From assembly GCA_000002445.1 (NCBI GenBank), contig CP000066.1, positions 64,001 to 128,000 of the forward strand: DNA of 64,000 nt, written 5' to 3'. Below are positions 31,701 through 34,700 of the stretch, one piece after another. The stretch comes from Trypanosoma brucei (taxonomy: Eukaryota). Made by a program: the position numbers. The stretch's first letter is position 1. Each line of letters starts with the position of its first letter.

Positions 31701-34700
31701 CACAAAGCAAGGCGACAGTAGCCTACGCAATGATGTGCCTTTGTTTGGAAGCCGGTGGGGCCACAGGCGCAAAACCATGCGAAGCCAGCACCAAAACAGG
31801 CAACTGGAACGGCGCCGACACCGACTTAGCAGCTGAGTTCCAAAAAGTCAAAAAACTGTGCCACACCACAAAAAAAGCAACAGTGAGCGCAGACAGCATC
31901 AGAAGTGCACTTGACCATGTGCACAGCCTCATCAAAATAGTAAGCAACGCGGGATATCTCGGTCATTATGAAAACACCGGCTGCACAGGGACCAGCAATC
32001 AGGGGCTTTGTGTGAGATACGCGACGAAACTAACCGATACAGCAGACGACTTTCATTCCTTACATTTCGTACAAAAAATGGAGGAAGCAGCAAAGAAACT
32101 CCAACAACGGCAAGCAGCGCTAGACACGGTCCGAACAGCCCACAGAGCAGTAGGAGCAGAGCTCGCAGCGGCGTGGCTTTTGGCAAAGGAACAACAAGTT
32201 AAAGAGCAGCAGAGCCAAGTAGCGGCTTCATCACCATCACACCCCAGCAAACCAGCAACGGAGGCAGTGGAAGTGCAGAAAAAAGAATGCGAAGCAATTG
32301 AAAAAGATACCGATTGCGACTCCAAGCCTTATTGTACTTACCAAAAAGACAGCGCCGACGATAAGAAGTGCAAATTTAATGCTACCAAAGCTGAAAAAAG
32401 TGGTGTCCCTGTAACACCAACTCAAACTGGAGGAACCGAAAATGGAAAAACTGACTCAGATAGGTGCACAAAACACACTAAAAAAGAAGAATGCGAGGCA
32501 GAAAACAAAAATGTCAAAGCAGGTGAGAAAGCAGTTTGTGGTTGGATTGAAGAAAAATGTAAAGATTCAAGTTTTGATTTGAATAAGAAATTCACTCTTA
32601 TGGTTTCTGCATTTGTGGCCTTGCTTTTTTAATCCTCTCCCCCACCCCTCTTTTTTAACAAAAATTTGCTATTTGATATATTTTAATACCTTTAAATTCC
32701 CCGAAAATAGTGTGATTTGTAAAACTGTGATTGTGTTAATTTTTCTAATGGGCTCAAAAAATTTTCCACTACTTTTCTTTGAATTTTTATGGTTAGGTAT
32801 TTTTAATGTTTTTAGATTTTTTTCGTTATTTCCCAATTTTTGACCATTTCTCCTCGAGCTATTAGTTTTAATTTTTTTATAGTTCTTTTTTAACTTCTAA
32901 AAACTTTCAAGTTTTTTTTGAAATTATTTATTTTTCAATGGGGTTCTTAAATTTTTTCAAAAGTTAATTGATTTTTCGGTAATTTTTCTTTGAATTGTTT
33001 TTTCCAGCGATCCAACAAGGTGGGCGGATGGTTAGGGTTAGGGTTAGGTAGCCCATGGAGGGTTATCCAGGTTCTGGTTCTGGATAAGATCAGGATTAGA
33101 GTTATTCGGGTTAGAGTTAGGGTTCTAATTTTCCTTTCAAGTATTTTACTAGCAGTGATTCGTCCCAACTTTAGCTTTTTTGTTCTTAGTGATGCAGCGG
33201 CTCTCCTTTGAGGTGACTCCTAACCCTTATTCACGCTGCAGAGGTCCGTGCTTTAATTTTTAATTTTAATATCAGCCGCAATTTACATTTTCGCTCTTGT
33301 TGCTTTTGCGAGTTTCAGCTCTGCATTTCGTGCTGCGCGCGGCTTCAAAATTTTTTGCTTTGAAAGACACTGGCACGCGGCAGTTTCGCTGAGCAAAACG
33401 ATTTGCTTTTCAACAGGCGCTAACAAAAAAATCTTAATATTTGGAAGTTGCAGAATATGGAGTTCGGCAGCTAAAGCCAGCCGACACAGTAGCCTCGAAA
33501 GCTTGTAGAGCGGCACAGCAACCCCAGCCAAAGCAAGTGGAGGCGGCGAGCAGTTAACTGCAGCGTCAGCATGGCAAAGCACGCATAACGCCATGCCACA
33601 ACAGATCCGGCGGCAGCCCTCAAAAGATCTTAATGCAGGGCCCAATAATCACGACGGGAAAAAATTCACAGGAAAAACGAAGAAACGAGCCAACAGTAGA
33701 GAAACAGAATAAATGCAAACTAAAAGACACAACTACAGAGGAATGACCCGAAGCTGACCGCGACTATGATGCCACCAAAAAGAAATGCAAACCTAAACAA
33801 GGAACAGAAACCCCAGCAACAGGAACAGGAGAGACAAGCACTGTGGTAGATTAAAATAAACACCGATCCCAGAAAGCATGTGAGGCAAAAAACAAGGATG
33901 TCAAACAGAGTGAGAAAGCAGTCTGTAAATGGATTAATTTTGTTGATGGTACTGGAAAGCTTCCCAAACACGAGTGCCGCTCCTCCAGTTTCCTCGACAA
34001 TTAAAAATTTTCTCTGAGTATGGCTACTTTAATGAGTTAGGTAATATTTTAAATTTTAAAAAATATTGCTAACTTTTAAGAGAAAATGAAAAATTTAGGA
34101 AAATATTTATGATAATGGTCTATGGGTGTAAAGCAGTTGAGTGATGGGGTATGAAAAATTAGTGCAATTTTGAAATTTTCTAATTCGGTTTATTTTGTTT
34201 ATTTTATGGATATTAGTTAGTGTTATAAAATAATAATAATAATAGGAGTGTACTGTAAGTGTGTGTATACGAATATCATTCATGGTGGTGAAGAATACTA
34301 AATAGACGGAAAAACAAAAGAAATAAAATAAAGGAGAAGGATTTAGTGTGAACATGAAGATAATTAGAGAGGAAACGAAGAATATAATTGAAGAAAAGGC
34401 AGAAAGAGAGGTACAAGAGTTCAATTCGAATATTTTCAGATTTAAATACAGTTATGACAAAAAGCATTATCATGCATGGGAATATTATGGAAGACAAATG
34501 ATGGTAAGATGAATTACACTAGACAAAGCACTAAATTTCTTCGTCATCTGTAGAAATAAGATCAATATAAGCATAATATTCATGTTTTAGATTTAGATAC
34601 AAAGCTGTATGTTTTGTGATTGAATTTTTAAACTTCTCGAAAATAAAAATATACGTTGTGATGAGACTTACTATATTCTTAACCTTTCTACCTTTTTTGT

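Follow-up and report, generated by a model that had tools for sequence, protein, structure and literature searches.

A module with a telomere-like tract and a VSG C-terminal pseudogene fragment occurs twice in a silent VSG array of Trypanosoma brucei

Two unusual cassettes in a silent VSG array

The DNA analysed here is a stretch of 64,000 nucleotides of Trypanosoma brucei (contig CP000066.1, positions 64,001 to 128,000), hereafter the window, in whose own numbering all coordinates are given. Positions 1-47,000 carry a silent array of genes for the variant surface glycoprotein (VSG); our subject is a module of about 1.3 kb that is found twice in this array and consists of a VSG 3' untranslated region (UTR), a T-rich tract with TTAGGG repeats, a spacer and a VSG C-terminal fragment. 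The array comprises some 12 cassettes, head to tail on the plus strand, each made up of a 70-bp repeat, a VSG and the 16-mer of the VSG 3'UTR (TGATATATTTTAATAC); they could be defined because the map of the 16-mer (14 matches in the window versus 1.24 expected, on the plus strand only) was combined with that of the 70-bp repeats. Along the same strand, Pfam identifies VSG N-terminal domains of A-type and B-type as well as VSG C-terminal domains (CTDs). The distance from a 16-mer to the next 70-bp repeat is typically 190-260 bp, with a range of 140-332, and only two cassettes depart from this spacing, each of them having about 1.3 kb inserted between the two elements.

Both cassettes have a VSG on the plus strand ahead of the insertion. 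The one upstream of copy 1 of the module, VSG1 (12364-13962), is of A-type (Pfam Trypan_glycop, 2.8e-84; Trypan_glycop_C, 8.6e-22), and the one directly upstream of copy 2, VSG2 (31058-32632), is an intact gene of B-type (VSG_B, 1.2e-77; Trypan_glycop_C, 8.2e-27) that lies outside the paralogy and has 100% identity over its full length to XP_843648.1 / AAZ10089.1, "variant surface glycoprotein (VSG), putative". That these are different genes had already been stated in an earlier account of this DNA, which we call the original prediction. The frame of VSG1 (13920-13962) extends nine codons beyond the usual end of the glycosylphosphatidylinositol (GPI) signal (...FLSFFKIFHPLFPC, then a stop), and one added T in its T7 run would give back a TAA at the usual position; its exact protein is absent from the public collection in which those of its neighbours are present, and the gene may be annotated otherwise or as a pseudogene.

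Homology between the two copies

Homology was tested with blastn and MAFFT, after which each segment was scored against dinucleotide shuffles. Significant homology takes the form of two collinear blocks, 13964-14147 versus 32671-32820 (about 73-80% identity) and 14407-15225 versus 33186-34017 (about 74-82%). The blastn matches themselves are 14516-15225 with 33297-34017 (82.4% over 727 columns), 13964-14106 with 32671-32805 (73%) and 14407-14463 with 33186-33240 (74%). The original prediction had described the two stretches as paralogous along their whole length. The duplication of a module is real, with collinear homology at z values of up to 121, but it is narrower and older than had been claimed, and homology over the entire length cannot be upheld.

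Segment by segment, the part that follows the 16-mer (13983-14147 versus 32690-32820) is identical in 80% of aligned columns (z=16). The T-rich middle (14148-14300 versus 32821-33029) is not alignable and does no better than shuffled sequence (z=-0.8, a score reached by 71-110 of 300 shuffles), and the stretch from the telomere-like tract to the spacer (14301-14406 versus 33030-33185) is marginal (z=1.6 to 3.0). The signal returns at the 5' edge of the spacer (14407-14515 versus 33186-33296; 83% of aligned columns, z=7) and continues through the spacer body (14516-14875 versus 33297-33675; 82%, z=121), the 5' part of the CTD fragment (14876-14996 versus 33676-33788; 77%, z=21), a block of 179 identical bp (14997-15175 versus 33789-33967; 100%, z=121) and the 3' part of the CTD fragment (15176-15225 versus 33968-34017; 80%, z of about 21-22). 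After the fragment (15226-15400 versus 34018-34200) there is none (z=-1.0). Similarity in the pairwise alignment is not confined to T-rich sequence, the spacer body scoring high and the T-rich middle low; the spacers, at 77-82% identity, are not near-identical as had been proposed.

When the 179-bp block is set aside, identity over 14407-15225 amounts to 74% (471/634) if gap columns are left out and to 71% if they are counted; transitions and transversions stand at 81:82. With a divergence of about 25% (about 75-80% alike), the two copies are old, and the "virtually identical" part would be a patch of its own and no sign that the module as a whole was copied recently. There is no third copy within the 64-kb window. 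Paralogy is confined to the module, the adjacent upstream regions, the VSGs and the later cassettes being alike only in the generic similarity of 70-bp repeats and 3' ends. These observations support the view that paralogy forms an island here, made up of the module from VSG 3'UTR to C-terminal fragment.

The left limit of homology is found at or just before the 16-mer, i.e. at the VSG 3' end; the 16-mer of VSG1 lies at 13967-13982 (plus strand, two mismatches) and that of VSG2 at 32674-32689 (plus strand, one mismatch), which is about where the homology of the module starts. Because the motifs between stop codon and 16-mer are common to all VSGs, the switch point can be narrowed down to that region but not placed with precision. 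The right limit is at 15225/34017, within the GPI-signal codons of the fragment and after ...KKFSL. Beyond 15225 copy 1 reads ...TADAFVALLE and a stop, and beyond 34017 copy 2 reads MATLMS, a stop, VIF and a second stop, which is a different tail class. On either side, then, the shared unit ends within VSG 3'-end homology. The recombination boundary that had been predicted at the VSG 3' end is indeed there on the left, but without the precision ascribed to it, and the second boundary was missed, the homology having been drawn out to 15260. In expressed VSGs, 25% of 3' donation boundaries lie in the GPI-signal region (PMC3708902).

The tail of copy 2 is 84% identical to that of a T. equiperdum cassette and resembles the ...FMSWVAF tail, also followed by a stop, of the VSG that ends near 25385 (25330-25385). 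A deletion of about 100 bp at the end of copy 2 was considered as an explanation and rejected, since the occurrence of the same tail in these two places indicates a different GPI-signal/UTR class. As a side observation, positions 8234-8416 of the T. equiperdum locus L001 (QSBY01000013.1, 315662-337248) have the GPI-tail/UTR class of the copy 2 fragment. This locus and L002 (411796-427151 of the same contig), about 96 kb apart, both hold the same 528-aa VSG (P0005) together with its upstream 10 kb, a large recent segmental duplication in a T. equiperdum array.

T-rich flanks and telomere-like tracts

The T-rich flank of VSG1 occupies 13983-14406 on the plus strand, with 51% T and tandem periodicities of 25-28 bp, and that of VSG2 occupies 32690-33029 on the same strand (46% T over 32690-33185), its opening 130 bp or so (32690-32820) being homologous to 13983-14147 and the remainder unalignable. 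After the 16-mer, the two flanks are reciprocal best matches, with a score of 71 versus at most 28 for the other 12 flanks of the window. Those 12 belong, together with the 16-mer flanks of the two T. equiperdum loci, to another type that is richer in A, and no telomere-like tract occurs in any of the 12; the two flanks of the module are of the T-rich CCCG(A/G)AAATAGTGT type. Within the flank of copy 1, at 14073-14392, there are three short tandem arrays with a period of 25-28 bp, the consensus of which contains AGGGTTAGA-like telomere-derived motifs; the flank of copy 2 has no such periodicity.

The telomere-like tract of copy 1 (14303-14331, plus strand) includes (TTAGGG)2 at 14304-14315, and that of copy 2 (33030-33124, plus strand) begins with 3.2 perfect units of GGTTAG at 33030-33048 according to TRF, followed by decayed hexamers, so that TTAGGG repeats are present where the original prediction had placed them. 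In local alignment to (TTAGGG)n the tracts score 18 and 42, respectively, versus a maximum of 10 in random windows, and they are the two top sites of the window on either strand. Similarly, TTAGGGTTAGGG with at most one mismatch has four hits in 64 kb versus 0.13 expected, all on the plus strand within the two modules, and all six GGTTAGG heptamers of the window (6/6) lie inside them as well. The tracts begin 342 nt (copy 1) and 398 nt (copy 2) past the VSG stop codons, on the VSG strand.

In expression sites the distance from VSG to telomere is 200-1590 nt (PMC2567434), and T-rich and G/T-rich sequence is found downstream of the expression-site VSGs (PMC10686619). The 3' flanks of telomere-proximal VSGs are said to have a conserved organisation, in so far as PMC3708902 relates the work of Aline & Stuart 1989, and subtelomeres contain "residual ES sequences from recombination" (PMC10686619; ES, expression site). 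Because strand, distance and T-rich context match these reported VSG 3' flanks, we infer that the flank originates from a telomere-proximal VSG. A long terminal (TTAGGG)n at a chromosome end is not what is found here: two to three perfect units are followed by spacer, VSG fragment, 70-bp repeat and further cassettes, and the telomere-type flank is at most a relic.

A head-to-head telomere fusion was also considered as a candidate and rejected, since it would have to rely on one inverted 12-mer at chance level and since the VSG fragment points away from the junction. The 12-mer in question, TCCTAACCCTTA, is a minus-strand telomere-like sequence with two mismatches at 33218-33229, and 3.5 such matches are expected per window. 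It lies about 95 bp beyond the last TTAGGG unit, and copy 1 has TCTGACCCTTA at the homologous place; hexamers of the CCCTAA family are absent from copy 1.

Spacer and C-terminal pseudogene fragments

As delimited by blastn and the shuffle tests, the spacer runs from 14407 to 14875 in copy 1 and from 33186 to 33675 in copy 2 (plus strand in both; GC content 48% in copy 2). The homology restarts at an equal spacer position in both copies, 14407 and 33186, and this common junction favours a single joining event. At 470-490 bp, the spacer has a coding-like GC content of 46-48%, versus 24-42% in the non-coding parts of the window, and it contains long antisense open reading frames (ORFs), as do the VSG genes of the window. 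No match to it was found with Pfam at E up to 10, VSG_B and Trypan_glycop included, when either copy was searched in three frames, with Rfam at E up to 1, in a database of 5.8 billion proteins queried with the concatenated six frames, or in Smith-Waterman comparisons with 28 proteins (VSGs, VSG fragments and four ESAG1) against shuffled controls. Within the window, tblastx and sensitive blastn gave a single match, to the start of a C-terminal domain at 25020-25114. Neither the spacer nor TTAGGG dimers are present in the two T. equiperdum array segments.

The spacer is followed by a CTD fragment on the plus strand. In copy 1 this lies at 14876-15257 (Trypan_glycop_C 5e-13, 49.8 bits, profile positions 23-104, domain at about 14982-15251) and in copy 2 at 33676-34040 (1.1e-10, 42.3 bits, profile positions 1-100, domain at about 33714-34031), both exceeding the curated threshold of 21.4 bits for the VSG C-terminal domain (PF10659). 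At the DNA level they can be followed back to about 14876 and 33676 by a match (14876-14971 in copy 1) to 25020-25114, where the CTD of another VSG begins. A search for the N-terminal VSG domain upstream in the gene of either fragment gave nothing (Pfam at E up to 10, tblastx, Smith-Waterman and the protein database), and the C-terminal fragment has no relative in the protein database. Both fragments are pseudogenes, because stops and a frameshift interrupt the frame through domain and GPI signal. An in-frame TAA (15060/33852), inside the identical block, is common to the two; a 4-bp frameshift near 14985-14996 is peculiar to copy 1, and copy 2 has a TGA at 33744 and a TAA at 34002 of its own, the latter within the GPI-signal codons, where a stop had been predicted. 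The GPI signal of copy 1 ends in ...FVALLE with a stop at 15255. The idea that copy 2 has decayed further is not clearly borne out, given the common TAA and the frameshift of copy 1; copy 2 has stops of its own but the longer telomere-like tract. The copy 1 fragment also has its own 16-mer (15351-15366, plus strand, one mismatch), which precedes the following 70-bp repeat (15567-15713) by 216 bp, the normal array spacing, and after copy 2 the next cassette opens with a 70-bp repeat at 34229-34279 (plus strand).

The identical block

The longest non-tandem exact repeat of the window lies within the two fragments, where 14997-15175 equals 33789-33967 at 179 of 179 positions. The original prediction had reported virtual base identity of 15001-15180 with 33781-33960, which is borne out for 179 bp, but with coordinates in copy 2 that were about 8 bp off. 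The flanks of the block are 71-80% identical, and at that level a run of this kind would arise by chance with a probability of about 1e-26. This points to a recent gene-conversion patch, which would be separate from the copying of the whole module. In mosaic VSGs, donors need at least 73% identity (PMC3708902), a level that the two copies, at about 75-80%, exceed.

Origin of the module

Our preferred explanation, which we hold with moderate confidence, is that both stretches go back to a single ancestral junction, at which a telomere-type flank met a truncated VSG pseudogene; this junction was duplicated in the array, and the neighbouring VSGs were swapped by cassette conversion. In one event, a telomere-type VSG flank (16-mer, T-rich tract and the first TTAGGG-like repeats) would have become linked to the remaining 3' part of a truncated VSG, i.e. 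about 470 bp of now unrecognisable sequence and a complete C-terminal domain. The resulting cassette would have had two tandem VSG 3' ends, and a conversion running from the upstream 70-bp repeats to the second of these would have copied VSG and module together, splicing the module onto the GPI tail of the recipient; the right boundary and the different downstream tails would be as they are because that conversion ended at the second 3' end. Later conversions that stopped at the first 3' end would have swapped the upstream VSG alone, and it may be for this reason that unrelated A-type and B-type VSGs now stand upstream. Neutral drift could then have left the copies about 75-80% identical and slippage have scrambled their T-rich and hexamer part, and a recent short segmental conversion of at least 179 bp may have re-homogenised part of the C-terminal fragments.

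One may also consider two independent events, in which a telomeric VSG and its flank arrived separately at each of two paralogous truncated-VSG fragments; the T-rich and TTAGGG parts would then not derive from each other by copying. This would agree with the failure of the T-rich middle and the telomere tracts to align above shuffles and with the unequal lengths of the telomere-like tracts (29 versus 95 bp), and the conserved organisation of telomeric VSG 3' flanks, to the extent that Aline & Stuart 1989 is reported in PMC3708902, could explain the 73-80% block. However, T-rich sequence gives way to spacer at one and the same point of the spacer in either copy (14407 and 33186), so that independent non-homologous joins would have had to hit one base twice, and the two post-16-mer flanks are each other's best match; we therefore regard separate origins as improbable. 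Since the similarity after the 16-mer may partly reflect conserved flank organisation, the shared spacer junction is the stronger evidence of common descent. A different view of the T-rich tract would make it a polypyrimidine-rich intergenic region, of the kind involved in trans-splicing and polyadenylation, where TTAGGG arose by chance or slippage and no telomere took part. Perfect units number only two to three, with T-rich sequence carrying on beyond them in copy 1 and no long (TTAGGG)n, as such a view would have it, but TTAGGG dimers are at least 30-fold above expectation and occur at these two sites only, the 95-nt decayed hexamer tract scores 42 where the null maximum is 10, strand and distance fit telomeric VSGs (PMC2567434, PMC3708902), and the other 12 array flanks are without such a tract, which makes this explanation very unlikely.

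The identity of the 179-bp block could in principle be an assembly artefact, with reads of the two paralogous fragments merged into one consensus, given that it is the sole perfectly identical stretch and that the paralogues are 18.8 kb apart. Yet within tens of bases either flank has differences at about 20-25% of its positions, the block breaks off sharply in a mismatch at each end, and Sanger-length reads across it would be assigned unambiguously because the flanks have diverged, so we give this possibility hardly any credence. Another scenario is that the module was kept for a function, be it binding of TRF or RAP1, base J, silent chromatin, a fragile site or service as a donor in 3' donation. 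In chromatin immunoprecipitation, RAP1 binds T-rich and G/T-rich sequence that lies downstream of VSGs and gives weak peaks at subtelomeric "residual ES sequences" (PMC10686619), and the 179-bp patch suggests that the fragments still join in recombination. On the other hand, the copies are at about 75% identity with transitions approximating transversions, the telomere tract is the least conserved part of the module, and the fragments have stop codons, one of them inside the identical block, and no relative of the C-terminal fragment in the protein database; the prospect of a conserved function is slim. No function is required, and the module can be regarded as a recombination fossil that is still able to serve as a recombination substrate.

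Several points do weigh against descent from a single ancestral junction as outlined above. Continuity of descent through the T-rich middle and the telomere tracts, neither of which aligns, would follow from collinearity alone. The spacer is assigned to a truncated VSG only by its GC content and antisense ORFs, and it has no similarity to a VSG N-terminal domain. With no more than two to three perfect repeats, and T-rich sequence that restarts after them in copy 1, the join may sit in the sub-telomeric T-rich zone and not in the telomere proper, and the block after the 16-mer could be alike through conservation of all telomeric VSG flanks. Finally, copies were counted in the window only, and a two-step history would be too simple if there are many of them genome-wide.

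A bolder proposal is that a VSG once beside a telomere, in an expression site or on a minichromosome, returned to the silent internal array together with its telomere-type flank. We consider this rather unlikely; if true, it would be physical evidence that genes held or assembled at telomeres can return to the archive. A cassette with two tandem 3' ends would, moreover, offer conversions two alternative stop points, and an interstitial TTAGGG/T-rich tract might attract telomere proteins or behave as a fragile site in the array.

Other features of the window

Three ORFs of the window match proteins of Trypanosoma brucei brucei TREU927 exactly, all from one contig of 1,653,225 bp, which we take to be chromosome 3: VSG2, a VSG ORF at 1865-3445 (XP_843646.1) and an ESAG1 ORF at 52511-53503 on the minus strand (XP_843651.1). 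The accessions AAZ10087, AAZ10089 and AAZ10092 are close together, suggesting that few genes of the window have protein annotation. Between 47000 and 64000 there is a strand switch, at which the plus-strand VSG array gives way to minus-strand genes; beyond it lie, on the minus strand, the ESAG1 ORF just named, an ORF similar to VSG_B (57971-59335) and the gene of a leucine-rich-repeat protein (62588-63985). The second-longest non-tandem exact repeat of the window, a direct repeat of 118 bp (53110-53227 and 56172-56289), is in the minus-strand ESAG1 region, as is another exact repeat of 53 bp (53229/56291).

Within the array, an (AAT)n microsatellite of about 54 units (28639-28799) abuts the 70-bp repeats of the VSG2 cassette. 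At 41425-42990 a 521-aa ORF stands where a VSG is canonically found in a cassette, with a 70-bp repeat at 40407 and a 16-mer at 43041; it has no Pfam match to a VSG N-terminal domain and only a weak C-terminal match (E=0.53), and it could represent a VSG of divergent or atypical kind, if the ORF is not itself misleading. A second layout in which a VSG is followed by a VSG 3' fragment, without a telomere-like tract, is found at 23879-28464. There, a B-type VSG (23879 to about 25385) whose C-terminal domain is interrupted by a stop or frameshift precedes about 2.5 kb of non-VSG sequence; then come an ORF (27875-28324) that encodes a C-terminal domain and, ahead of it, the last part of an N-terminal domain, and a 16-mer at 28449.

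Significance and comparison with known systems

The building and renewal of the silent VSG archive have so far been understood only in part. Telomere-type flanks fossilised in arrays would mark cassettes that came from chromosome ends and, if common, could be used to trace telomere-array traffic genome-wide, and the 179-bp patch between two dead fragments suggests that short-patch conversion acts in silent arrays too and not just on the expressed gene. In the literature we found no description of interstitial or degenerate telomere repeats in T. brucei arrays, although a prior description is possible.

Duplication and conversion of VSG cassettes in silent arrays, bounded by the 70-bp repeats and the VSG 3' end, are said to have been described by Marcello and Barry in 2007, who reportedly also noted C-terminal-only VSG gene fragments in arrays. 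The fragments of the module resemble the latter in having a CTD and GPI signal, stop codons and, in copy 1, their own 16-mer at normal 70-bp-repeat spacing, but they are preceded by a telomere-type flank and a spacer of about 470 bp and not directly by a 70-bp repeat. As for cassette conversion, the homology elements of which are summarised in PMC8402208, the likeness lies in unrelated VSGs that stand before a conserved downstream segment and in boundaries within VSG 3'-end homology, GPI-signal codons included; the differences are that the unit found here starts at a VSG 3' end instead of a 70-bp repeat and that there are two tandem 3' ends. Thus, of the two borders of a canonical cassette duplication, the 3' one in the GPI-signal codons is seen here and the 5' one in the 70-bp repeats is not. 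The 179-bp identical CTD tract between partners of about 75-80% identity is reminiscent of segmental conversion and 3' donation (Hall, Wang & Barry 2013, PMC3708902), with the difference that it joins two silent pseudogene fragments of one array and does not involve an expressed gene.

The 3' flank of telomere-proximal VSGs (PMC3708902) likewise has a 16-mer and, after it, T-rich sequence whose TTAGGG-like repeats are on the coding strand, and the distances observed here fall within the 200-1590 nt reported (PMC2567434). In contrast, the flank in the array is internal and runs into unique sequence, a VSG fragment and a 70-bp repeat, and the likeness is one of description. Interstitial telomeric sequences are, in eukaryotes generally, relics of former chromosome ends or of repair (PMC6410037). 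The module agrees with them in having a short decayed TTAGGG tract inside a chromosome, beside subtelomere-type sequence, but it is not arranged head to head, and its tract is very short and embedded in a cassette of a gene family. Every component, be it the TTAGGG-like repeats that lie 3' of telomeric VSGs, fragments with the C-terminal part alone, 3' boundaries within the GPI signal or segmental conversion, is already known in T. brucei. The module is therefore an ordinary by-product of known VSG recombination and not a new kind of element, a tidy example in the reference genome rather than a discovery.

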